Part shown: positions 4,947 to 20,254 of the stretch, one piece after another
Layout of the letters: every line of letters begins with the position of its first letter
How positions within the stretch are numbered: position 1 is the first letter of the stretch
Made by a program: the position numbers and the translations under genes
DNA from: a virus
Lineage: Duplodnaviria; Heunggongvirae; Uroviricota; Caudoviricetes
Length of the DNA: 20,973 nt
Virus record (IMG/VR): IMGVR_UViG_2778261696_000009
Coordinates: 1-20,973 of that record
Reading direction: 5' to 3' (one strand)
Notes under the pieces: generated by a model
Database searches by the model: none
What the model was told of the DNA's origin: nothing
Seen by the model: the letters and a program-made list of their open reading frames with translations, nothing else

Positions 4947-5687
4947 CTAGCGTTGCATTTCAGTTACTATGAAATTTTCTTCTGTAATAGAATTCATTAT
5001 CTCAAAGTACAATTCTTCAGGTTGAATAAACGCCAACTCTTTGCAAAGGTTGACAATGGTATCACTATAAGTGATACCCATCCGAGGATTGAAAAGCTCA
5101 AATCTCTTGATGTTTCTTTTGTTTTTTGAGTAAAAGTTTAAAGTGAAATATATTAGCACCTGTCTAAGATCGTAAACACTAAACTTCCTATCTCCTGATT
5201 TTATTTCCACAAGAACATTTGAATAATAAATATCGCCATATGAATTATTTATTACTCCGCATCCATCGAATTGTGGAGACACTTCAATTTGGTTTTCCAT
5301 TCCATATCGAGACAAAATGTTTCTTGCTATTTCCCTTATGGCATTGTACTCAACCATGCTTAAGGGTAGCTTGAAGTTAGAACCGTAAGCGAACCGCTGT
5401 AGATATTCTTTTGTTTTTTCAAAAACAACCTGAAAATCAGCATTATGGAAGATATCATGTGCTGAAAGAATATTTCTGTCTAACGAATCATTCTGTATTG
5501 CCCTATATAAATTAAATGCGCACTCATTAACAAAGACGTTATTTGACCTATTAGCGCAGTCATCTAGAGGAGGATAAACGTCCTCGATGAGACTGCCGTT
5601 AATGATGCGTATGAAATTATTAGCATTTGGAAGCAATTGATTCCAAAATGAAGTGAATTTTCGAGAAAACGTTAATTCAGATATCAT
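4947..5687 (-). CDS. Partner protein of the reverse transcriptase (246 aa, unknown family; possible nuclease-like effector)
   Basis: AT-rich ORF whose ATG overlaps the RT stop as ATGA (5684-5687). No family recognised by eye. Contains GDIYYSNVLVEIKSG, i.e. D-x9-E-x-K in a hydrophobic beta-like context, weakly reminiscent of a PD-(D/E)xK nuclease core. Confidence 0.7.
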   Translation of the reverse strand: MISELTFSRKFTSFWNQLLPNANNFIRIINGSLIEDVYPPLDDCANRSNNVFVNECAFNLYRAIQNDSLDRNILSAHDIFHNADFQVVFEKTKEYLQRFAYGSNFKLPLSMVEYNAIREIARNILSRYGMENQIEVSPQFDGCGVINNSYGDIYYSNVLVEIKSGDRKFSVYDLRQVLIYFTLNFYSKNKRNIKRFELFNPRMGITYSDTIVNLCKELAFIQPEELYFEIMNSITEENFIVTEMQR

Positions 5688-7312
5688 AGCGCATCCTCAA
5701 GATTTCTTGCGGTATGCCTTTTACTTGCCCAATCCCTGTAAATCACCTCTACAAAGTTGAATGTTTTCTTATTATGCTCTCTCCAGTGCCGTCCTTCATC
5801 ACCTAAGATGTAACTGGAAACGATCAATAGTCTTCTCTGCAACGGATGCATTGCAGAGAAATTTTTTTTGATATCAGAAAGCCATGCGTAAGAATTAATT
5901 TTTGCCATTGACTGTGTAACTATGTTCTTGACTAAGATGCTTTCTGGATTGTTATTGTATATTTCACTAAGGATTAGGGTGGATTTTTCTGAATTTTCTT
6001 TTGAGAGCATTCGGGCTACATAGGCTAAGTTGAGCTCAGTACTCAAAATATATGAATCTTGTTTAATTAGTGCAGTTATTTTATCAAGAATAATATCTTT
6101 GGTTTCTGTGCTTAATTTTTGCCAGTTGGAGTTAGCTACTTGAATTATAGTTGTAAATATTGGATATAACTCATGCAAGTTATTAAACATTACTTTGAAA
6201 GCACTACTTATTATTTCATCTGATGTTGCTGAGAATGCCTTTATCAAATGCTTGCTAAAAGATTGGTTAATTTTTGATTTTTGTAACTCACTACTCAGCA
6301 TAGCTAACAAGTCAAAATCTTTTAAAGATTCCTTTATCTCTTCATATTCCTCTATCGCATTTGCTGAGTAAGGATCGAATCTTATAGGAAGACTCATAAA
6401 TTTAGCCTTCATAGGAGATTCTTCATCTTCATCATTACCATGCAACTTAGCTTTAGTTACTGAAAGGAACTCTTCTTTAGTAACAATATTGGTTTTTTGT
6501 TTCTGTAAAGTTAGCCCTTCATTTTCCATCAGTTTTTTACTAAGCAAAGTTAAAATCTTATGAGCATCCTCTCTAGAGTTACAAAAAATAACAAAGTCGT
6601 CGACATAACGCTTATAGTTGATTCTATTCATAGACAATAATTTATCAATAGAATCTAGAGCTAGTTCTGCTAATATTCTAGAGGCAGGACATCCAACTGG
6701 TACTCCATATGATTTTGTTTCACTAAATGTCTGTAGTAATTTCTTGATTTTCCCAGAGTAATCTTTATTGGGGTCGACTCTATCTAACGCATTTTCTAAA
6801 CGGTGGTGATAAATACGCGGATAGAAATCTGCTATATCGCATGTAAGTACATACTTTATTTCATCGTTAGAACATTCAGAGATACTGTCTTCTTGATATT
6901 TTCTCCAAGAGATCTCTTTATCAAAAAGAGAACCATCAGCAAGGTTTGGTTTAAAGCGATATGAATAAACCTGCGTTTTAGTAGATCTATTCCTTTCAAT
7001 ATCATCAGCGATTTTTAAAACTAACCCAAGAAAAAAAGCATTCCAGAATGGATCAATTTGGGTCGCCCACCTGTAACCATAATAACCAATACTTGAAAAG
7101 CTATTAATTATGTTTGGTGGAATCTCGATCCTTTTATTTTCAAAGTCATTAAATGTTTGCATTAATGCAGTTTTTACTTTCTCCTTATCATCTTCAAATA
7201 ACCGACTTTCAAATGGGTAAGGGAAAATATCTGTATCGCCGTGCTTTATAATATTTTCCAATGCAAGCTCAAAGCAATTTTCTAGTTTACTACTATCAAA
7301 CTCGTTACTCAT
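5684..7312 (-). CDS. Reverse transcriptase (Abi/DRT-like defence-associated RT: N-terminal RT domain plus ~250-aa C-terminal helical domain)
   Basis: RT palm motifs in canonical order: LTCDIADFYPRI (motif A-like), GVPVGCPASRILAELAL (motif B-like), YKRYVDDFVIF (motif C, YxDD box). The C-terminal half has no RT motifs and contains GRHWREH (R-x4-H). The ATG overlaps the integrase stop (AATGAGTAA) with AAGGAG 7 nt upstream. AT-rich. Confidence 0.85.
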   Translation of the reverse strand: MSNEFDSSKLENCFELALENIIKHGDTDIFPYPFESRLFEDDKEKVKTALMQTFNDFENKRIEIPPNIINSFSSIGYYGYRWATQIDPFWNAFFLGLVLKIADDIERNRSTKTQVYSYRFKPNLADGSLFDKEISWRKYQEDSISECSNDEIKYVLTCDIADFYPRIYHHRLENALDRVDPNKDYSGKIKKLLQTFSETKSYGVPVGCPASRILAELALDSIDKLLSMNRINYKRYVDDFVIFCNSREDAHKILTLLSKKLMENEGLTLQKQKTNIVTKEEFLSVTKAKLHGNDEDEESPMKAKFMSLPIRFDPYSANAIEEYEEIKESLKDFDLLAMLSSELQKSKINQSFSKHLIKAFSATSDEIISSAFKVMFNNLHELYPIFTTIIQVANSNWQKLSTETKDIILDKITALIKQDSYILSTELNLAYVARMLSKENSEKSTLILSEIYNNNPESILVKNIVTQSMAKINSYAWLSDIKKNFSAMHPLQRRLLIVSSYILGDEGRHWREHNKKTFNFVEVIYRDWASKRHTARNLEDAL

Positions 7313-8489: not shown

Positions 8490-8541
8490 GTGTATAGAAT
8501 TCCAAAATCGAACAGGAACATATACATAATCCTATACACAT
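8488..8541. promoter_or_regulatory. Int-proximal CTATACACAT motifs (one inverted copy overlapping the int start, one direct copy), candidate arm-type sites and int promoter region
   Basis: ATGTGTATAG at 8488-8497 is the reverse complement of CTATACACAT; a direct copy is at 8532-8541 and a related ACATATACATA at 8519-8529. Same motif as at 613-633. Confidence 0.35.
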
Positions 8542-8652
8542 TTAGTACTGGATTCTACTGGAAAGTTATGGACTAATACGAACAGTAAAAACAAAAAATC
8601 TTTTATAAAACAGTGCGGTTATGGATAAATACGGATGTTTGAAGAAGTGGAG

Positions 8653-8670
8653 ATGGTGCCGATAATAGGA
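8653..8670. repeat. Candidate attR core: right copy of the 17/18-nt direct repeat
   Basis: ATGGTGCCGATAATAGGA at 8653-8670 versus ATGGTGCGATAATAGGA at 537-553. It lies ~165 bp beyond the int start. Confidence 0.4.
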
Positions 8671-8727
8671 GTAAAACACTCGATTAATCTCGTGTTAATG
8701 CCATCACCTACGACCATTACTAATTGA

Positions 8728-10092
8728 TTGAATCTTATAGAAAAATCATCATTTTCTATGCGTCACAATCAATTTTCACATTACAAACGCTCCGACACTT
8801 TAGCCGGAGATTTTATGAGATACAAGCCTAACCAATACTTAATCTGTGATTCTTACGGTAACTACTATTTAAGGATCACGCTGCCTGTGTATATGCAGCC
8901 CTTTTTTGAAGGAAAAAGGACGTTTGTCAGAAGTCTACACACAAGTAATCTTCGTGTTGCACGTAGAAAGCGTGATCAGATTGCAGATGAATACCATTGC
9001 TTACGGGAGAGTGTTGCCCCTGTAAACAGCACAATAGAAAACACGCTGGAACTGTTACGCAGTAAGGCTAAATACGCCAAAACAGCTACCAGAGTGCAAG
9101 ATACAGCGTCTTCGTGTCCGTCATTGCTTAAAATTCTTGAAATCTACCTGACAATTAACAGCACGAAGAAGAAGCCAGCCACTTTAGCTAAGGCAAGAAA
9201 AGCGGTAGAGATGTTTCTCTCCTACCGTAAAAAGCCTGATATTGCATTGCAAGATGTAAGCCGCACCACTGTTACAGGCTGGATTGAACACATGCAAAAA
9301 ACTCTTTCACAACAATCAATTGCAAATTATATCAGTCCAATGGCCCAGCTATGGGAATTAGCTTCATCACGTTACCACGATGCGCCAGAAAGGGCGCTCT
9401 CCCCCTGGCGAGGGCATAGGCTTGATGTGGCACAAAGTAGAGAGAGCTACGAGGCATTTTCTAACAAAGAGCTATTGCAGGTGTTGCAAGTATTTTCCGG
9501 TAATTCAGCAGAAAACAAAGAAATGACGGCTTTGTGTCTTATCGGTTTATATACAGGTATGCGGATCAATGAGATAGCAAGTCTCACAATAGACGATGTG
9601 AAAGAGATCGAAGGTGTGCTGTGTTTTGAAATCACACAGGGAAAGACGAAAGCTGCGGCACGTGTTGTGCCTGTGCATAACCTTATCACTCCGTTGGTGT
9701 TGTCGCTGCGTGAAAAGCCTCACAATGGCTTTTTGTTCTATCACGCCAGCATTACAGAACGTGCTGACGGTAAACGCTCTACGTGGCATACACAACGATT
9801 TACAAGAGCTAAACGAAAGGCTTTAGGGGAAAAGGGAACAGAAAGGAAAGTGTTTCATTCTCTGAGACACGGAGTAGCACAGCTTCTTGATCGAAATCAA
9901 ATTCCAGAAGACAGGATCGCCCTTCTCCTGGGCCATACACGCGGCAATACAGAAACATTCCGCACATATAGCAAAAATGCAGCTTCTCCAATAGAGCTTA
10001 AAAAATATATTGAGCTTTTACGCTACCCTGAAATAGAGAAAGGCTTATCAATCAATAAAAAATCAAATTTAAGGCGTAAAACAACGCTATAG
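8728..10092 (+). CDS. Second tyrosine recombinase / phage-type integrase (likely true start at ATG 8815)
   Basis: C-terminal catalytic signatures: YTGMRINEIASL (R), HSLRHGVAQLL (H-x-x-R), LLGHTRG and FRTYSK (Tyr). The in-frame ATG at 8815 has a GGAG RBS 5 nt upstream. Divergent from the P4-type int. Confidence 0.8.
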   Translation: MNLIEKSSFSMRHNQFSHYKRSDTLAGDFMRYKPNQYLICDSYGNYYLRITLPVYMQPFFEGKRTFVRSLHTSNLRVARRKRDQIADEYHCLRESVAPVNSTIENTLELLRSKAKYAKTATRVQDTASSCPSLLKILEIYLTINSTKKKPATLAKARKAVEMFLSYRKKPDIALQDVSRTTVTGWIEHMQKTLSQQSIANYISPMAQLWELASSRYHDAPERALSPWRGHRLDVAQSRESYEAFSNKELLQVLQVFSGNSAENKEMTALCLIGLYTGMRINEIASLTIDDVKEIEGVLCFEITQGKTKAAARVVPVHNLITPLVLSLREKPHNGFLFYHASITERADGKRSTWHTQRFTRAKRKALGEKGTERKVFHSLRHGVAQLLDRNQIPEDRIALLLGHTRGNTETFRTYSKNAASPIELKKYIELLRYPEIEKGLSINKKSNLRRKTTL

Positions 10093-10172: not shown

Positions 10173-10850
10173 CTATTGTTTAAATACTGGCGTTACAACG
10201 TCTTGCCCTGGGCTTTTTTGATTTTTCTGTTCTGTTGTATTTACCTGCATTTTAACCTGGCCTCCTACAGATTTATTTGGTGCTGTTTTTACCGCAATTG
10301 CGCTTGTAGTTGCTTTAGAGACAAGACGGATTTGCTCAAAATCAAGAGTAAACAATAGGCTTTCGCTTGCTTCTTCTTCGTAAGACATGCCAACTAACAC
10401 AACGTTGTCATAATTTTTTAACTCAGTGACAAGTAGGAAAGGTTGGCGACTGTCCATCAACTGATTTAGGTATTCAAGCATAAGCATACGTCGATTGCCG
10501 TTAATTCCAGCATTCTTAATCATATCAGGATTGAGCTTCAATACGGTTTCAGAGATACGCCCTTGTAATGTGAACTTGTTATTCCGTATTTGAACATGAT
10601 CACTAACTTCTGATCCTGATTCGACGGCATAGCTTGTAACGTCCGCATTTCTGCTAACTTTCGTCGATTCCACGCTATCAAATGATAATGCCTGGTAGTC
10701 ATTGTAAGCAGCATTTGCACCACTGCCGAGATTAGAGGTAATGATCGCAAAGCCGTTACCCCCTTTGGTTGTTCTACCGTTGCTATCGTTGCTTGTGCTG
10801 TTGATTTTCGCCTCAGTCGGGCGACCAATGGTTAACGGACCCATTGCCAT
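10173..10850 (-). CDS. Hypothetical protein (225 aa), last gene of the structural-looking operon
   Basis: ORF with AAGGA RBS upstream of the ATG at 10850; Ser/Thr/Asn/Gly-rich N-terminus. Follows the 613-aa gene on the same strand. Function not recognisable by eye. Confidence 0.5.
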   Translation of the reverse strand: MAMGPLTIGRPTEAKINSTSNDSNGRTTKGGNGFAIITSNLGSGANAAYNDYQALSFDSVESTKVSRNADVTSYAVESGSEVSDHVQIRNNKFTLQGRISETVLKLNPDMIKNAGINGNRRMLMLEYLNQLMDSRQPFLLVTELKNYDNVVLVGMSYEEEASESLLFTLDFEQIRLVSKATTSAIAVKTAPNKSVGGQVKMQVNTTEQKNQKSPGQDVVTPVFKQ

Positions 10851-10897
10851 AATTTGTAATCCTTATTTAAGGGGGCTAAACAGCCCCACAGTGATGA

Positions 10898-12739
10898 TTA
10901 ATAGGTTGACCCGCCTGACATAACACCCAGCGTTAATAGCTTGCTAAACTCAGCGGAGGATGCCTTTGATTTGAAGTCGATAAATTCGCTCAATCGTCCG
11001 GTGTCTGATTCGATAGTTAGCGGCACTTCTGCATTTACTTGTAATTCTGGATTGAAGTTAATAACAGGTGCAAAGGTGTAAGAAGGAGCCTTGAAAGCTT
11101 GTTGTGCTGCACTCTGTTTCAGATTTGCAATGTTTTGTCCTTCGAGACTGTATTGATTTACAGCCTGCGCCCCACCTACCGTTTCTTCTGGCATAAACCA
11201 GCTTTTAATAGTGTTAACCAGGGAATTGCTGTTATCTGGCTTAGTTGTTCCGGTGCCAGCGCCTTTATATTGATCAGGAGTGAGATTAGAAAGATTCTGC
11301 TTCATTCCTTCGTTAGATAGTGGCGGTGCATCCCCTAAATTCTTCTGAATAGCTTCCGTCTTCTCGTCGTTTTTCATCAGCCAGTTGATTGTTTTCATTA
11401 CGGCGTTAACCAATCCGCCGATAGCCTCGCCTAATTTGGTAAACATTGGCAGCATTGCAACCATGCTCTTTTTAAACTCTTCAATCACTTTCGGATCAAG
11501 AGATTTCATAAAGCCATCAACAAAGGCGATCCCTTGTGAGTCAGAAAGCCCACTAAGTGCATTATTCAGTTCACGGAATTTAATAACGCTTTCCTGTTGT
11601 GCCTGTGTTACCCAGCGCCCTGATTCTCGTTGTTCTCGTGCTGATTGTTCCACTTCTTTAGCGGAGCGTGTCCAGTATTTAGAGGTGAGCATCAAATCAT
11701 CAGCCAGATCTTCCAGACGACTACCGATTTGTGCATCTGAATAGCCTTTCTTCACCATTCCCTGAACTGCTTTACTAACCAGACCAGCCGGATTATCAGC
11801 AAAGTCTTTTAGATCCTTTTTAGTTAAGAATCCTTCATTCATTAAAGTATTGATGCCGCTATCGCCGCCCTTCCATTCACCTTTGCCTGTTTTTTTATCG
11901 ACTACATATTCAGCCTCATCATAGCTTTTGGTTGCACGCTCACGCACATCTTTCATCTGATCGAGATACTTACGTTTACCTTGATCCCCCATCATTGAAT
12001 CAACGCCGTTTTTGTAGGCCCATTGCTCAATATTGTTCATCTGGTTAACGTCTACACCGCCCAGCTTCGCACGGCTATACAATTCACCCAGCGTTTCAGC
12101 ATTCGCAAAGCTGTTAGTAACAAATTCAGAGGCTTTGCTCATAGCCATATACGTAGCGCCAGCGCCTAAGCCACCCAGCATAACAGCCGCAGCACCGCCG
12201 CCAATACTCCCGCTACCCTTAACAGGTGCATAGGCTTTAGCGTGAGCGTTACGATTGCCATTAATCTTACGTTGTTGCTGTTGTAGGCGTTTCATTTGGC
12301 TATTCATACGTGCCAGACTAATAGCTCCTCTTTCATATTGGAGGGCAATTTCTCTAGCCTGTGCAATAGCTTTATATTGTTCCGCTACAGAAAGGCGGTG
12401 CAATGCACTAATGCTTGATCCAACGTCTAACAGTTTTAAGTCTGCCTTCTCTTTGCGTGCTGCCAGGGCTTTTTGTTCTCTTGCAACTACACGTTGAGCG
12501 GCTAATTGTGCTTTAGCATTGGCTTTATCTGCCTGTGCTTGCTTTTTAGCAATATCGTCTACGTCTTTTTTTGCTTTAGAAGTTGATTGTTTATGTGTCT
12601 TAACACGCAATTCTATATCTTTCACCGCCGCCATTTGTTTACGAAGTTTTTCTACTTCTGCTTTTGCTTTCTCTAATGATGGTCGATCAACCTGGAAGGT
12701 GACAACGTTTGATAAGCGGCTGACGTTAAGTTCTAACAT
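10898..12739 (-). CDS. Large coiled-coil / glycine-rich protein (613 aa), tape-measure-like or scaffold-like
   Basis: N-terminal ~150 aa strongly charged Lys/Ala/Gln-rich heptad-like sequence, then a Gly-rich hydrophobic segment (GSGSIGGGAAAVMLGGLGAGATYMAMS). This architecture is typical of phage tape-measure or internal virion proteins; the assignment is tentative. Confidence 0.6.
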   Translation of the reverse strand: MLELNVSRLSNVVTFQVDRPSLEKAKAEVEKLRKQMAAVKDIELRVKTHKQSTSKAKKDVDDIAKKQAQADKANAKAQLAAQRVVAREQKALAARKEKADLKLLDVGSSISALHRLSVAEQYKAIAQAREIALQYERGAISLARMNSQMKRLQQQQRKINGNRNAHAKAYAPVKGSGSIGGGAAAVMLGGLGAGATYMAMSKASEFVTNSFANAETLGELYSRAKLGGVDVNQMNNIEQWAYKNGVDSMMGDQGKRKYLDQMKDVRERATKSYDEAEYVVDKKTGKGEWKGGDSGINTLMNEGFLTKKDLKDFADNPAGLVSKAVQGMVKKGYSDAQIGSRLEDLADDLMLTSKYWTRSAKEVEQSAREQRESGRWVTQAQQESVIKFRELNNALSGLSDSQGIAFVDGFMKSLDPKVIEEFKKSMVAMLPMFTKLGEAIGGLVNAVMKTINWLMKNDEKTEAIQKNLGDAPPLSNEGMKQNLSNLTPDQYKGAGTGTTKPDNSNSLVNTIKSWFMPEETVGGAQAVNQYSLEGQNIANLKQSAAQQAFKAPSYTFAPVINFNPELQVNAEVPLTIESDTGRLSEFIDFKSKASSAEFSKLLTLGVMSGGSTY

Positions 12740-13122: not shown

Positions 13123-14154
13123 TTACGCAGCAGATCCGAAGATGATAGCTTGCGGAATGTTGTTTACTGGCAGATAAGATGTCTCAGTAACCACAGATGG
13201 GAATTGGAATTCATCCTTGATTAGATATTGGTGATGCAACACGGCATCTTGACCTAACTCAGCATGACGCACACCAACGCCGCTATGAAGCTGGTAACAC
13301 TGTGCCGCTTTATCCATTACCGGAACAATTGCGAAACCGTTCTCTCCGATGTGAGCAACAATCTCAGGAAACATTGACACATCAATAACAGTGATCCCAC
13401 CAATCTGGAAAGAGTCATAGGCTGGGTTAGAATCAACCATACGGGTAAACAGGGCCGTAGCACTCGCATCGCCTGCATATTTCACCATGTCACTGATCAG
13501 CGGGTTAGATGACAAACCATCAGCAGCAGTGCCAGCAGCAAAGATAATTACACCAGTTCGCTTTGCAGCAAGACCAGACCCCAGCTTTTCACTCTGTAAG
13601 CGCACCGCTTTACGAATAGCAAGGAACGGGTTAACAGTAGTCGATGCAAAGTCGATAGCGGGTACCGTGGTTTTAGCCTGACCGTCGAGGAAGTCGAGAT
13701 CACCTTGTCCGGCATATTCAGATTCAACTTTCAGGCCCAGCAGCGCGGTAATCAGATCCACTTCAACACGGTTTGCGTGTGAACGGTAATGAGCCTCAGA
13801 GAAATCATTAACCGCTACCAGCATAGCATCAGAACGGTTTGGATATTGGCGGCTGTATTGTTCCAGGTCACGAGAAGTAACAGCGTTAATACTGCCGACG
13901 TGTTTCATCTGGAAAAGTTTGTTTGACCATTCCTGACGTTTAGAGGCGTTCCAGTCGCTTTGAGCGTAAGGCGAGGTTTCCCCAGCTACCTGCACAAACT
14001 GATCAATCAGGTCGGTAAGAAGAATGCTGTTTTCTGTATGATATTGCACATCGAACAGATCGAGATTAGTAATCAGGGTATTAAGTGCATTCTCATAAGC
14101 AAATGGAGTTACTACCGCAGTATTAACGCCAAAATATGTTGATAAATCATTCAT
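13123..14154 (-). CDS. Putative major capsid-like protein (343 aa); identity tentative
   Basis: Strong RBS (AAGGAAA, 8-nt spacer). Size and position immediately after a ~127-aa decoration-like gene mirror the lambda-type D-E (decoration, major capsid) arrangement. No direct sequence match could be verified by eye. Confidence 0.55.
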   Translation of the reverse strand: MNDLSTYFGVNTAVVTPFAYENALNTLITNLDLFDVQYHTENSILLTDLIDQFVQVAGETSPYAQSDWNASKRQEWSNKLFQMKHVGSINAVTSRDLEQYSRQYPNRSDAMLVAVNDFSEAHYRSHANRVEVDLITALLGLKVESEYAGQGDLDFLDGQAKTTVPAIDFASTTVNPFLAIRKAVRLQSEKLGSGLAAKRTGVIIFAAGTAADGLSSNPLISDMVKYAGDASATALFTRMVDSNPAYDSFQIGGITVIDVSMFPEIVAHIGENGFAIVPVMDKAAQCYQLHSGVGVRHAELGQDAVLHHQYLIKDEFQFPSVVTETSYLPVNNIPQAIIFGSAA

Positions 14155-15738: not shown

Positions 15739-16038
15739 TCATTTAGAGAAAATAGCACTTTTTGCTAAATCATCTACTAATTGCTGAATCTCTTCACTTG
15801 CAACCTTTAACGTGGTGGCGATGTCTGTGATGATTTGATTACACTGTTTTGCATCGTCCTCTGATACGCTCACCAGAGAGATAAAATCGTCAAGGCTTAC
15901 ATTCACCTTCATTAAGCTAATAACGCATTGAGAGAGCGTGTAATCGCATAAATCTGAATAGGCTTGATTTATTCTTGTTTGTAGTGAGATAGTCAGATCT
16001 AAAAGTTGTTCCATTGCATTGCTAATATCTTCTTCCAT
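15739..16038 (-). CDS. Small hypothetical acidic protein (99 aa)
   Basis: ATG overlaps the stop of the upstream gene (TAATG); AAGGAG RBS 9 nt upstream. Last gene of a minus-strand string of small ORFs. Confidence 0.5.
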   Translation of the reverse strand: MEEDISNAMEQLLDLTISLQTRINQAYSDLCDYTLSQCVISLMKVNVSLDDFISLVSVSEDDAKQCNQIITDIATTLKVASEEIQQLVDDLAKSAIFSK

Positions 16039-17058: not shown

Positions 17059-17727
17059 TTAGAAGGGTAGTGAATCATATATTGTGCTCTCACTTTTGAG
17101 ATCAATTATCAAAGAGTCAAAATCATTTTCACAAAGATAGATATTCTTTGAATCTAATGCTCGTTTTACAAAATCTTCTGTTTCTTCGTGCGGTGGTTTC
17201 TTCTTATCAAGGGAAAGAAGCCAAGTAAAAATTTCGGGCCGCTCAGGGAACTCTGGCTCTTGTGTTTCTTCTTCAACGATGATTTCGGAAACATTCAATA
17301 TTTCATTAGATTCGTCTTCTTTCTCAGAAGGATCAGGTAGTGATGACTCTCCAGGGGGAGTAATATGTGCATCTGTGAATGGTAATGCTTTATAGAGTGA
17401 TGTTTGCCCGTCCCGAGCCTCTACAGAAAGAACTCCCATATCAACAAACATATTTATAATATTGCGAACCTGGCGATCACTAACCATTCCAATATTAGAT
17501 AATGTTTTTTGAGTGGCGTAACATTCTTGCCCTTGTTCATTGAATCCAGCTATATAGCTATAGATTTCAACGGCTGGCAGTGTAGCGGTGTATTCATTAC
17601 CTGACGGTGAGAACCACTTTTTAAACATCTTCAACCACTGCTCAACGACTACATATTTTTGTTTACCATCTTTCTGATTTAGACATTTGGCTTTCGCTTC
17701 GGCAATTGTTTTGATATTTTTGATCAT
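17059..17727 (-). CDS. Winged-helix DNA-binding protein, replication-initiator / replisome-organiser-like (222 aa)
   Basis: AAGGAGG RBS 6 nt upstream of the ATG. Central segment QKTLSNIGMVSDRQVRNIINMFVDMGVLSVEARDG looks like a winged HTH of Rep/DnaD-type initiators, followed by an acidic C-terminal tail. Confidence 0.6.
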   Translation of the reverse strand: MIKNIKTIAEAKAKCLNQKDGKQKYVVVEQWLKMFKKWFSPSGNEYTATLPAVEIYSYIAGFNEQGQECYATQKTLSNIGMVSDRQVRNIINMFVDMGVLSVEARDGQTSLYKALPFTDAHITPPGESSLPDPSEKEDESNEILNVSEIIVEEETQEPEFPERPEIFTWLLSLDKKKPPHEETEDFVKRALDSKNIYLCENDFDSLIIDLKSESTIYDSLPF

Positions 17728-17851
17728 TTAGTTCCTCCTTTGTAAGGACTGTAATTAGTAATTCATTAACAAGTTTTGGAATTGATTTCCCTTCTGCCTT
17801 TGCACGATTTAACAACGCGTTATAAGTTGCAGAATCAAAATTAATATTCAT
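17663..17851 (-). CDS. Ribbon-helix-helix (CopG/Arc/ParG-like) DNA-binding protein
   Basis: N-terminal SATYNALLNRAKAEGKSIPKLVNELL fits a beta-strand plus two helices RHH signature. GGAGAAGGAG RBS upstream. The 3' 65 nt overlap the start of the downstream gene. Confidence 0.55.
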   Translation of the reverse strand: MNINFDSATYNALLNRAKAEGKSIPKLVNELLITVLTKEELNDQKYQNNCRSESQMSKSERW

Positions 17852-17874: not shown

Positions 17875-18057
17875 TTATTCTTTCTCTGCTCCTGCCTTAC
17901 GCAGTTCATCAATAATTTTTAGTGCATCGTCAAAACATTTTTCACGCTCTGGATAACCACAGCGTCGCGCTGTGTTCCTATTCATTCTTACCCTAAAGCG
18001 GTTGATCTCACCACGTTTCCAGGCTTCAACTACATCTTGAGAAGTGAAATACTTCAC
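17875..18057 (-). CDS. Small protein (60 aa), first gene of the regulatory operon (GTG start)
   Basis: GGAGG RBS 7 nt upstream of the GTG at 18057; candidate sigma70 promoter ~115 nt upstream. Confidence 0.45.
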   Translation of the reverse strand: MKYFTSQDVVEAWKRGEINRFRVRMNRNTARRCGYPEREKCFDDALKIIDELRKAGAEKE

Positions 18058-18180
18058 TAATTAACCTCCTATTCTATTTGGTTAAAAGAAAAAGACACCT
18101 TGCAAGCCTCTTGGGCTTCAAAGTGCGGTGCATTGGTTTAATTATTTAGAGGATAGGAATGTTTTCCTGTCCCTAATATT

Positions 18181-18209
18181 ACTTTACCATAACTAAAGGC
18201 TTTTGTCAA
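18181..18209 (-). promoter_or_regulatory. Candidate sigma70 promoter for the minus-strand regulatory operon (TTGACA-N17-TAAAGT)
   Basis: On the minus strand: -35 TTGACA (plus 18204-18209), 17-nt spacer, -10 TAAAGT (plus 18181-18186). A dyad AGGAA-N4-TTCCT at 18155-18168 lies just downstream and could be an operator. Confidence 0.35.
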
Positions 18210-18542
18210 CCCCCGCCCATAAAATATTGATCATTTTTCAGTATGTTATGATTTTGCTTAGCAATTCGTGCTCTTCTGTGTGATGCTATTCTTCCTTATT
18301 CTCTAAAACGCGTTCTAACGAGGTTTTGATAAAAACAATACATTCCCTTATGTAATGACAGTTTAGCTCGCCAGAGGTTTATTTAAGGGGCTTATTTTGT
18401 ATTTGTTAGGTATATGAAAAGGAGATGATAGATAAACTCTAATTTCAGACACCTTATAAAATACCTGTAAAGCTCCTCAGAAGCTCTATAATGAGCTAAT
18501 CTATTACCGCTAAGGTTTCCCTGCCTTATATACGTTTAGCTC

Positions 18543-18809
18543 GCCTACGGCTTGATTTAAGCGGTAGAAACTTATTTAACCTTCAACTACTAAAACCATT
18601 CTTTCTTTTTTGTTTGTTGTTGGTTGTTGTCTGTGTCTATGTGCTAACATCGCTAACGCGTAGCACACAAGGTTATTGCACTCGTCAGAGTATTGCACAA
18701 TAGATTTTCTCTTAAATAGATTGATGATCGTTAGATTGGCGTAAGCCTCATCAATGGAACTATTGAAGCGCACAGCGCAAGACTATTTAGCCTTACGCAA
18801 GCCGTAGGC
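18543..18809. repeat. Perfect 12-bp inverted repeat pair (GCCTACGGCTTG / CAAGCCGTAGGC) flanking ~240 bp
   Basis: GCCTACGGCTTG at 18543-18554 and its exact reverse complement at 18798-18809; flanking bases extend the match imperfectly. A related direct repeat GTTTAGCTCGCC occurs at 18361-18372 and 18534-18545. Confidence 0.5.
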
Positions 18810-18893
18810 TATTTGCACATAGTAGATTACATATTCGTTGTGAGCGGCATTAGCGAACATAGATCTACTAACTAACATCAACAAACAAAAACT
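18607..18893. repeat. Imperfect ~55-bp inverted repeat pair (TTTTTGTTTGTTG... arms)
   Basis: 18607-18660 versus the reverse complement of 18836-18893: the first 13 nt are identical (TTTTTGTTTGTTG), then partial identity including CTATGT and CGCTAA. Confidence 0.4.
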
Positions 18894-19040
18894 ATGTGTT
18901 ATGACAAGCAGTCTAACGACTAACACTCTAACTTGTGCAAGGTTCTGGCGAATGCCAATAGATTAAGGGTATAATTATTCTTATAAAGATAAAAAAGAAT
19001 TATATTATATAGTTTAATTGTAGTTTAATTATAGTATTGT

Positions 19041-19140
19041 CGGAAATCATTTCCTAGGTGATAGGAACTCATTTCCTAGGTAGGTAGGAAACCACTTCCA
19101 CGGTTATTTCCTAAATAGATCGGAACTCATTTCCCAGGTG
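19041..19140. repeat. Iteron array: 4-5 tandem ~22-bp repeats with a palindromic core GGAAATCATTTCC
   Basis: Units at 19041-19060 (cGGAAATCATTTCCtaggtg), 19063-19082 (aGGAACTCATTTCCtaggta), 19086-19105 (aGGAAACCACTTCCacggtt), a partial unit at 19106-19118, and 19121-19140 (cGGAACTCATTTCCcaggtg). Each carries the dyad GGAA-N5-TTCC. Confidence 0.6.
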
Positions 19141-19646
19141 TTATTTATACTTATCGGGTATCAGACTTGATAGGGGTAGCTCACAGTGACCTACCGTTAC
19201 ATCCAATCATCACATAGCATCTGTGCAATGATCTTCTAAAAGTGTTTCTTGCTACCAAAATTAAACATCTAAAACAGGCTTAAATTCAATGTAATTGATG
19301 ATTAATCCCTGTGTAATTCCTACGTAAAAATCCAATGAAAAGTAGCTTAAAAAGTGCAATGTTAGCTTTCTTCACTTTTACATCACTTTCGCAAAGCCTT
19401 GTGTAATACGGCTTACAGAGCACTATCAGAAATTGTTGATTAAAAATCAATCTATTATTTGTCGAACAAGTTTCCTTTAATGCAACAAAAAATTATTTTT
19501 TCAAAATAAACACACTATTTAATAGCTTGCTAATTTTACCAAAATGTAACTACATGATTCTCATGCAAGACGTGTAGTGATAAAGCAGGCTAAATCACCA
19601 CACTAAAAACCTTCGAATTTCGTAGTGAAAAAAGTCCTTTACACAC

Positions 19647-19689
19647 CTAATCAACACGATCAATAATCACTACACACAAATCAACACAG
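19647..19689 (+). promoter_or_regulatory. Direct AATCAACAC repeats immediately upstream of the serine recombinase gene
   Basis: AATCAACAC at 19649-19657 and 19679-19687, with ATCAATAATCAC between. Position suggests a promoter/operator or recombinase binding site. Confidence 0.3.
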
Positions 19690-19696
19690 AAGGAAA

Positions 19697-20254
19697 ATGA
19701 AAATGGCTAATATTGGATACATTAGGGTATCGACTGTGCAACAAAACACAGACCGTCAATTAGCTGGAGTAACTCTTGATAAAGTCTTTGAAGATAAAGC
19801 GTCAGGCAAGAACACTCAGCGCCCACAGTTTGAGGCAATGATGAACTATGTGCGGGAGGGTGACGTGTTACACGTCCATAGTATTGATCGCCTTTGTCGT
19901 AATACAGCCGACCTTCTGGCAACGGTTGAGCAATTAACAGAGCGCGGCGTGTCTGTGCATTTCCATAAAGAAGACTTTAAGACAGGGAAGAACTCTCCCG
20001 CAGGGAATATGATGCTCACAGTGCTTGCAGCAGTGGCACAAATGGAACGTGAAATGATGCTTGAGCGGCAGCGTGAGGGGATCGCCGCAGCTAAGGCCGC
20101 TGGACGTATAGCAAAACGTGGTAATGGAAAAGCAATTGATCGAGCGGGAATTGTTGCCGCTCTCGCGAATGGTGGATCAATTCGGAGCGTAGCAAAAGAT
20201 TTCAGTGTCAGCACACAGACGGTGCAACGTATCAAGAAAGAGCAGGAAGCGTAA
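19697..20254 (+). CDS. Serine recombinase (resolvase / DNA invertase family)
   Basis: N-terminal IGYIRVSTVQQNTDRQ contains the catalytic Ser in the Y-x-R-V-S-T context typical of resolvase/invertases. C-terminal GGSIRSVAKDFSVSTQTVQRIKK is an HTH. ~185 aa. The more likely start is the second ATG at 19703 (AGGA RBS). Confidence 0.85.
   Translation: MKMANIGYIRVSTVQQNTDRQLAGVTLDKVFEDKASGKNTQRPQFEAMMNYVREGDVLHVHSIDRLCRNTADLLATVEQLTERGVSVHFHKEDFKTGKNSPAGNMMLTVLAAVAQMEREMMLERQREGIAAAKAAGRIAKRGNGKAIDRAGIVAALANGGSIRSVAKDFSVSTQTVQRIKKEQEA

Follow-up and report, generated by a model that had tools for sequence, protein, structure and literature searches.

In the closest described system, that of the satellite PLE of Vibrio cholerae and the lytic phage ICP1, the RepA_N domain of the satellite initiator has been shown experimentally to co-vary with the iterons of the replication origin, the C-terminal domain being conserved (PMC8263062). 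The ICP1 protein Odn is a T5orf172 nuclease whose N-terminal domain (42% identical) copies that of PLE RepA; cutting requires the iterons, and PLE escapes by module swapping or by iteron restructuring (PMC8263062). The present description concerns 20,973 nucleotides of Escherichia coli chromosome (IMG/VR record IMGVR_UViG_2778261696_000009, here called the window; 100% identical to strain EC12). An array of short repeats (19042–19143) lies there in an integrated island of about 12.9 kb, which also encodes an initiator-like protein of 222 amino acids (aa). The favoured reading, held with fair confidence as a whole, is that the array represents the origin iterons of an integrative, satellite-like island and is the target of a phage nuclease.

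The locus resembles PLE/ICP1 as an integrative satellite of a lytic myovirus, its satellite status being read from sequence; in a protein whose N-terminal domain co-varies with a non-coding array of semi-palindromic iterons, against a conserved C-terminal half; in phage chimeras composed of a copied binding domain and a T5orf172/GIY-YIG nuclease, kin of homing-endonuclease-like genes; and in replicon-module swapping and iteron restructuring among satellites. It differs in host and phage (E. coli and Stephanstirmvirinae), in the nearest Pfam match (HTH_36, none to RepA_N), in unit length (22–23 bp against about 30 bp) and in the number of module types (five against two). Each nuclease carries two tandem binding domains of different type, 88–100% identical to those of the islands, versus 42% for Odn. 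Capsid-like and tail-like genes, as well as composite loci with several arrays, distinguish the E. coli islands. The PLE case is experimental; the E. coli case comes from sequence analysis.

In phage lambda, origin specificity resides in the N-terminal domain of O, and the helicase loader is recruited by its C-terminal part; lambdoid phages swap the N-terminal domain together with the origin. Shared with O and ori-lambda are an N-terminal winged helix, about four dyad iterons by an A+T-rich tract and an exchangeable module of N-domain and origin. The lambda origin, however, lies within the O gene, whereas the present array is non-coding and about 1.3 kb away, and no P-like or DnaC-like partner gene is present. 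Staphylococcus aureus pathogenicity islands (SaPI) and other phage-inducible chromosomal islands (PICI) also have satellite initiators with cognate iterons that flank an A+T-rich region, with island-variable specificity; SaPI Rep is a helicase paired with a primase, whereas the 222-aa protein has no NTPase domain and its island no primase. Initiators of iteron plasmids (RepA_N of pSK41 and pTZ2162; RepA, RepE and pi) share the winged helix, direct repeats of about 22 bp and an A+T-rich unwinding element. In contrast to these plasmids, the array is absent from PLSDB, DnaA boxes are lacking and the element is chromosomally integrated.

Repeat array and probable cognate protein

The array of the window is of the type designated A. 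Its dyad, GGAA-N5-TTCC, is exact at 19042, 19064, 19087 and 19122. The period is 22 bp by Tandem Repeats Finder (TRF); a repeat search gave a 24-nucleotide (nt) unit in four copies, with spacings of 22, 23 and 35 bp. The 35-bp gap is occupied by a half unit, kept in the type A loci L016 and L037, hence the "four to five units" of about 22 bp named in the original prediction, a description borne out by four perfect dyads and the half unit. In the whole window the dyad has five matches against 0.33 expected, and five or more were obtained in none of 100 shuffles. The unit extends past the dyad (GGAAMYCAYTTCC followed by YAGGT/ACGGT) and is thus a direct repeat with an internal dyad. The 4.5 units, of about two helical turns each, are situated in 1.6 kb of non-coding DNA between the operon of the 222-aa protein and a serine recombinase gene; no open reading frame (ORF) of at least 40 aa overlaps the array.

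18960–19040, no strand: A+T-rich tract of 80 bp, 80–95% A+T, with TATAGTTTAAT repeated 2.5 times; on the left side of the array.
19042–19063, plus strand: iteron 1 (type A), dyad GGAAATCATTTCC then TAGGTGATA.
19064–19086, plus strand: iteron 2, GGAACTCATTTCC then TAGGTAGGTA.
19087–19103, plus strand: iteron 3, GGAAACCACTTCC then ACGG.
19104–19121, plus strand: half unit, TTATTTCCTAAATAGATC.
19122–19143, plus strand: iteron 4, GGAACTCATTTCC then CAGGTGTTA.
19155–19204, plus strand: single units of other array types, namely type E CGGGTATCAGACTTGATAGGGG, type D TAGCTCACAGTGACCTACC and a type B half site GTTACATCC.
17778–17790, no strand: fifth type A dyad, GGAATTGATTTCC, within the 62-aa ORF and some 50 bp ahead of the start of the 222-aa gene.
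17059–17727, minus strand: 222-aa initiator-like protein; winged helix, acidic linker and three-helix C-terminal domain ending in YDSLPF.
17362–17640, minus strand: coding sequence of the type A winged helix, about aa 30–122.

The A+T-rich tract is the left flank of the array cassette, is conserved in other loci and is a candidate DNA-unwinding element. The single type E, D and B units are relics or extras from cassette exchange. The fifth dyad, on the opposite strand, differs from iteron 1 at one of 13 bases and is shared by all type A loci and the phage copy. Two matches to the consensus of integration host factor (IHF) lie 150–280 bp to the right of the array. Rfam gave nothing credible on 17900–19750. 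Between 18530 and 18960, long imperfect inverted repeats are dense (for example 18607–18628/18870–18891 and 18543–18554/18798–18809); both strands fold better than shuffled sequences (z = −2.6 and −3.0), with no Rfam match.

Loci related to that of the window were gathered from an E. coli genome collection, by exact-protein look-ups and from IMG/VR; a GTDB scan with the 222-aa protein gave two only. They share one architecture, in which the array is a cassette between conserved flanks. The N-terminal part of the protein, about 120 residues, is a winged helix of one of five types unrelated to one another; the acidic linker and the C-terminal domain are conserved, apart from one alternative C-domain. 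Arrays of all five types have a period of roughly 22–23 bp and occupy the same position.

N-domain type A: array motif GGAA-N5-TTCC.
N-domain type B: array motif GTAAC-N5-GTTAC.
N-domain type C: array motif TTCTGT-N11-13-ACAG.
N-domain type D: array motif TAGYTCACAGTGACCTACCCCC.
N-domain type E: array motif TATCAG-N4-TGATAGGGG.

A type A array of 2–5 copies is present in every related locus with a type A protein. The cognate motif is the most frequent one, in at least two copies, in 47 of 48 distinct loci, a result reached by 0 of 10,000 label shuffles, the weight of which rests on about six independent protein/array pairs because the 48 loci are kin. One such independent pair is from Klebsiella: an A-like protein, 70% identical, is accompanied by a related but shifted dyad, GGCAATGATTACC, with a 23-bp period. 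Given this co-variation, the type A winged helix of the 222-aa protein very probably binds the array specifically.

Two loci with a type D protein, L016 and L062, are composite. Copies of the motifs number 5–7 (D), 4 (A), 2 (E), 1 (C) and 3–4 (B); at L016:2718-3190 and in L062, D, A, E, C, D and B arrays stand in a row around an A+T-rich tract. Such loci may serve as origins of several specificities or as decoys for phage nucleases, or they may be scars of recombination.

The original prediction had named a ribbon-helix-helix (RHH) or a winged-helix protein as the reader of the repeats. Only the winged helix is upheld by the co-variation across the 48 loci. The 62-aa RHH-fold protein, encoded upstream of the 222-aa gene, is confined to type A loci; types B–E have one shared small protein of 55/56 aa against four different arrays. 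A partition centromere, at which an RHH or winged-helix protein on the array would stabilise an episomal form, agrees with the RHH fold of the 62-aa protein, with its top structural match (the centromere-binding protein ParG) and with the frequency of repeat arrays among centromeres. This reading is very improbable: the small protein is constant while the arrays of types B–E vary, the fold-match E-values are weak (0.3 and above), and no ParA/ParF/ParM-type partition NTPase gene was found among the element ORFs or in the RefSeq annotation of an element that is integrated, with integrase and att repeats. Of the predicted capacity for replication or partition, the second half is not supported, the element having no ParA-like gene; replication is retained as the best reading, on co-variation, the A+T-rich tract and initiator profiles.

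A recombination site (res- or hix-like) of the adjacent serine recombinase is a scarcely credible explanation. The 185-aa invertase/resolvase gene does begin about 550 bp downstream, and res sites consist of several dyads. The identical recombinase, WP_001273869.1, however, stands beside type A, B and C arrays, and the array is therefore not its site; in some relatives it is replaced by an unrelated 183-aa gene and the arrays are kept. Dyads of 13 bp are, moreover, too short for dimer sites of serine recombinases. An invertible recombinase segment, suggested by an apparent inversion in some loci, was rejected: the segment is the different, 183-aa gene.

The AlphaFold model of the 222-aa protein (mean predicted local distance difference test score, pLDDT, 72) has a confident winged helix at residues 30–120 approximately (pLDDT about 90), a disordered acidic linker (128–160) and a three-helix C-terminal domain. 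In PHROG searches the winged helices match replication-initiator, O-like and DnaD-like families, with values of 3.6e-6 (island protein) and down to 5e-17 (the double-domain phage protein); the O-like match is weak, and Pfam Phage_rep_O was matched (E = 0.014) by a phage chimera only. No profile match to RepA_N (PF06970) was obtained; HTH_36 alone was given by a Pfam scan at E ≤ 0.1. Initiators of the RepA_N type (4pql and 4pt7) are among the weak fold matches, no stronger than generic winged helices. Also listed is 4ro3 of V. cholerae, presumably the N-terminal domain of PLE RepA.

Both unrelated families of C-terminal domain end in an acidic residue followed by (I/L)PF: YDS(I/L)PF, DFDIPF and FDPIPF, as read from 17059–17075 of the window and from P0016, P0112, L016 and L017. 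These ends resemble DFDDDIPF, the end of E. coli single-stranded DNA-binding protein (SSB). Many replisome proteins dock on the SSB tail. The resemblance suggests that the initiator may recruit replisome proteins through a mimic of the SSB tail.

Direct repeats, an adjoining A+T-rich region and a co-varying, cognate, initiator-like DNA-binding domain are all present. The modular protein and its arrays are, to judge by their parts, the anatomy of an initiator-plus-iteron origin, and the array is likely to function as an origin. The type A winged helix would bind the 4.5 units of 22–23 bp, each semi-palindromic unit probably taking a dimer. Binding would open the adjoining 80-bp A+T-rich tract, and the conserved C-terminal half, by way of its disordered acidic linker and D-x-(I/L)-P-F tail, may recruit the replisome of host or phage. 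With no DnaA boxes near the array and neither a helicase nor a primase recognised among the genes of the island, replication would need host or helper proteins.

The reading of the repeats as an operator array is considered together with the operon.

17663–17851, minus strand: 62-aa RHH-fold protein, 98% nt identical to bas60_0101 of phage PaulScherrer.
17875–18057, minus strand: 60-aa ORF that opens the operon (60-aa, 62-aa and 222-aa proteins); conserved in all types.
18146–18176, no strand: imperfect palindrome just downstream of the operon promoter, containing the dyad 18155–18168; conserved in all types.
18181–18209, minus strand: operon promoter, sigma-70-like, TTGACA-17-TAAAGT with TG; conserved in all types.

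In the operator reading, the 222-aa protein is the master repressor or activator of the island, and the repeats are its operators, acting on a promoter or an RNA within the 1.6 kb of non-coding DNA. Co-variation proves cognate binding alone, not replication; many fold matches of the model are regulators of the MarR type, the relatives are named "transcriptional regulator" by NCBI, and the fifth dyad lies just upstream of the protein's own start codon. The array itself, however, has no promoter-like site, the promoters of the operon and of the recombinase being about 850 and 500 bp away; the palindrome at the operon promoter is unchanged across protein types; the profile matches are to replication initiators; and the A+T-rich tract and the SSB-tail-like C-terminus are left unexplained. 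An operator array is thus unlikely. The related dyad reported earlier at 18155–18168 does exist, just downstream of the sigma-70-like promoter as had been proposed, but its spacing is GGAA-N4-TTCC and it is the centre of the larger imperfect palindrome. Autoregulation through this dyad, which had been suggested, is not supported: the dyad is identical in the type D locus L018, whose N-domain is unrelated, and the palindrome is conserved in all types. The palindrome is likely an operator for a shared regulator (perhaps the 60-aa or a small RHH-like protein) or a 5' RNA hairpin.

Chimeric nucleases of Stephanstirmvirinae phages

The segment 17372–17632, within the type A winged helix, is 93.5% (nt) and 89% (aa) identical to genes of chimeric nucleases in phages muut, inny, BI-EHEC and Mt1B1_P17 (lytic, about 146–151 kb, Stephanstirmvirinae). 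The chimeras are 321–332 aa in length and consist of two tandem winged helices followed by a C-terminal nuclease.

Mt1B1_P17 chimera: first helix type C, 100% identical over 104 aa, a stretch that takes in the beginning of the island linker, and 99% at the nt level; second helix type A, 88%.
inny chimera: first helix type B, 92% over 126 aa; second helix type A, 89%.
muut chimera: first helix type E, first 114 aa identical when the two sequences are read; second helix type A, 89%.

For the type E helix of muut, blastp gave 88% over 139 aa with a gap, and nt identity is 95% over 430 nt. The C-terminal 100 residues, approximately, of the nuclease match Pfam MUG113 at 22.5 bits (cut-off 22.3) and a PHROG endonuclease family at 2e-18; a match to T5orf172 is weak (E = 0.03). 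This region is related to T5 genes and to putative homing endonucleases of ICP1. As in Odn of ICP1, a T5orf172/GIY-YIG nuclease domain is joined to a satellite-initiator-like binding domain (88–100%; types A, B, C and E). The gene directly upstream, muut_153, encodes a protein 100% identical to the 55-aa protein of the islands. More widely, the island shares 93–99% identical stretches of DNA, and homologues of tail genes, with Stephanstirmvirinae.

By analogy with the action of Odn on PLE, the chimeric nuclease may be guided to the iterons and cut the origin, and exchange of N-domain and iteron cassettes may be the escape route of the islands. Attack of the nuclease on the array is somewhat favoured. 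The array matched none of the phage records; the muut genome lacks iteron arrays of every type, as well as any complete type A unit.

The nuclease is sporadic, conserved at 95% or above in six phage records only. In PaulScherrer (Justusliebigvirus) its slot is taken by the 62-aa gene bas60_0101. The hot spot between muut_152/bas60_0102 and muut_155/bas60_0100 is filled with genes derived from the islands: the 62-aa RHH gene by itself in one allele, the 55-aa gene (100% identical) together with the chimeric nuclease in the other (L002:3416-4633, muut; L015:2468-2653, PaulScherrer; L003:3668-4654). The alternative phage allele contains a type A dyad; for this reason the phage nuclease may act as a homing endonuclease directed against sibling phages, in addition to attacking the array or in place of it.

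Five GGAAACCAYTTCC sites of muut were considered as operators for the shared winged helix and were rejected; the resemblance is probably coincidental, because PaulScherrer, without the nuclease, has the same hairpins six times. Each site (muut 66500, 67359, 69368, 71677 and 72256) is within a GGCGGGAAATGGTTTCCCGCC hairpin just past an early promoter. In Justusliebigvirus the hairpin follows sigma-70-like promoters at a distance of about 8–10 nt and precedes the start codons of small early genes by about 25 nt (L004-L006, muut; L041, PaulScherrer, 6 sites), with or without the nuclease. It is probably a 5' stem-loop or an operator.

The island and its probable satellite character

The tRNA-Thr site is occupied by two islands in tandem, the array being in the second. 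The first, a P4-like satellite, carries a primase gene, psu, an integrase gene and a DRT8 defence pair. Its DRT8 pair (4947–7312, minus strand) comprises a 542-aa reverse transcriptase (PADLOC Drt8, 5e-166) and a 246-aa PD-(D/E)xK partner and is placed between psu and integrase, the usual hot spot of P4. At 8490–8727 both integrase genes diverge from one 21-bp fragment of tRNA-Thr; the two elements therefore share one att site, in tandem. The second island is bounded by 21-bp repeats of the 3' end of tRNA-Thr.

8652–8672, no strand: 21-bp att core, GATGGTGCCGATAATAGGAGT; second copy at the tRNA-Thr 3' end, about 600 bp past the end of the window.
8728–10092, plus strand: tyrosine integrase of the second island.
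10173–12739, minus strand: two tail-related genes, for a 225-aa tail protein and a 613-aa tape-measure-like protein.
13123–14154, minus strand: 343-aa major-capsid-like protein; its only match is a PHROG major-head family (5.5e-5).
19697–20254, plus strand: serine recombinase, invertase/resolvase type, 185 aa; gene of the element.

Several small ORFs are also present; PADLOC gave nothing on the small proteins of the island. The 225-aa and 613-aa proteins are 53% and 30% identical, respectively, to tail proteins of coliphages of about 145–151 kb, their best phage homologues, including members of Stephanstirmvirinae such as inny. The capsid-like protein has no tblastn match among 50,697 phage records; at the capsid position of related islands a different protein of 342 aa matches Pfam Phage_cap_E. 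The segment 14800–15738 (about 940 bp) has no ORF of 60 aa or more, and this gap is conserved in related loci. A 99-aa island protein (15739–16038, minus strand) has weak matches to the psi subunit of DNA polymerase III in both Pfam (E = 0.016) and NCBIfam (E = 1.6e-4, far below cut-off), which cover one and the same segment and may be due to chance. Psi pairs with chi, and chi binds the SSB tail. The match is suggestive in that it would fit the SSB-like tail of the 222-aa protein, chance aside.

The element is integrated, has an integrase and att repeats, and possesses an incomplete set of virion and packaging genes: the ORF list of the second island has no terminase- or portal-sized gene, and its virion-type genes are capsid-like and tail-like only. 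Its appearance is that of a phage satellite, not of a plasmid, and the likely target of the phage nuclease is the repeats; both points had been missed in the original prediction. A satellite lifestyle with Stephanstirmvirinae as helpers is reasonably well favoured, and replication probably takes place during infection by these phages, as suggested by the shared tail homologues and the 93–99% identical DNA.

The absence of a terminase also bears on the array as a packaging site. In that reading, the 222-aa protein resembles a small terminase subunit, with winged helix, oligomerisation region and a tail that binds a partner, and the repeats are a pac/cosB-like site that steers the packaging motor of the helper. 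Small terminases, for example lambda Nu1 at cosB, bind repeated sites by N-terminal winged helices, and a nuclease acting at a pac site would likewise cripple a satellite. The 222-aa protein, however, has no match to a terminase profile in Pfam or PHROGs and matches initiators; an A+T-rich tract next to direct repeats of two helical turns is origin-like, and the C-terminal tail resembles that of SSB. A packaging site is accordingly improbable.

Of 5,426 complete E. coli genomes, 734 match some part of the region 18000–19700, and in 186 the match covers 80% of it or more. The second island is absent from K-12. Identity with the K-12 prophage remnant CP4-6 was considered and rejected: YagK (208 aa) is unrelated, and only the yagP flank is common to K-12. 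The array was not found in PLSDB plasmids.

Weight of the evidence and significance

Several observations weigh against an origin of a phage satellite. Besides the kinship of the 48 loci, the match of protein and array is imperfect: the type D proteins of L016 and L062 are accompanied by full A and B arrays too, and the type D locus L065 has no motif at all. The 222-aa protein is weakly classified; fold matches of its model are mostly generic winged helices (E about 0.03), HTH_36 is below the Pfam cut-off for the island protein (23.3 versus 25), and NCBIfam and a sequence search of the PDB gave nothing useful. The array is about 1.3 kb from the gene of its presumed initiator, neither inside nor beside it, and DnaA boxes are absent from 18058–19696 and near the array. 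No circular or excised form was detected: six metagenome contigs with the array have no terminal overlap and no attP-type junction. Nearly all matches in IMG/VR are prophage-type predictions made on isolate genomes; they do not derive from virion DNA and therefore give no evidence of packaging. The type A dyad inside bas60_0101, that is, in the nuclease-free allele, is placed as a homing-endonuclease target would be.

To our knowledge, origin-directed nucleases together with replicon-module swapping are documented only for ICP1 and PLE of V. cholerae. Full-text searches of the literature found no paper on the E. coli system. It is tentatively considered an undescribed E. coli counterpart of the PLE/ICP1 conflict, possibly with widespread islands of about 13 kb that would parasitise lytic Stephanstirmvirinae, at least five interchangeable cassettes of initiator domain and iterons, dual-domain nucleases that hit two origin types and a mimic of the SSB tail. 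If true, E. coli would provide a second, independent case and the conflict would be a general route of phage counter-defence; a satellite family would be added for large lytic coliphages. The system provides five DNA-binding domains naturally paired with their sites, and the phages involved (muut, inny, Mt1B1_P17 and PaulScherrer, a BASEL phage) are already kept in laboratory collections. Dual-domain nucleases and multi-array loci suggest steps of the arms race unseen in Vibrio. For phage therapy, the islands could account for strain-specific failure of Stephanstirmvirinae phages.

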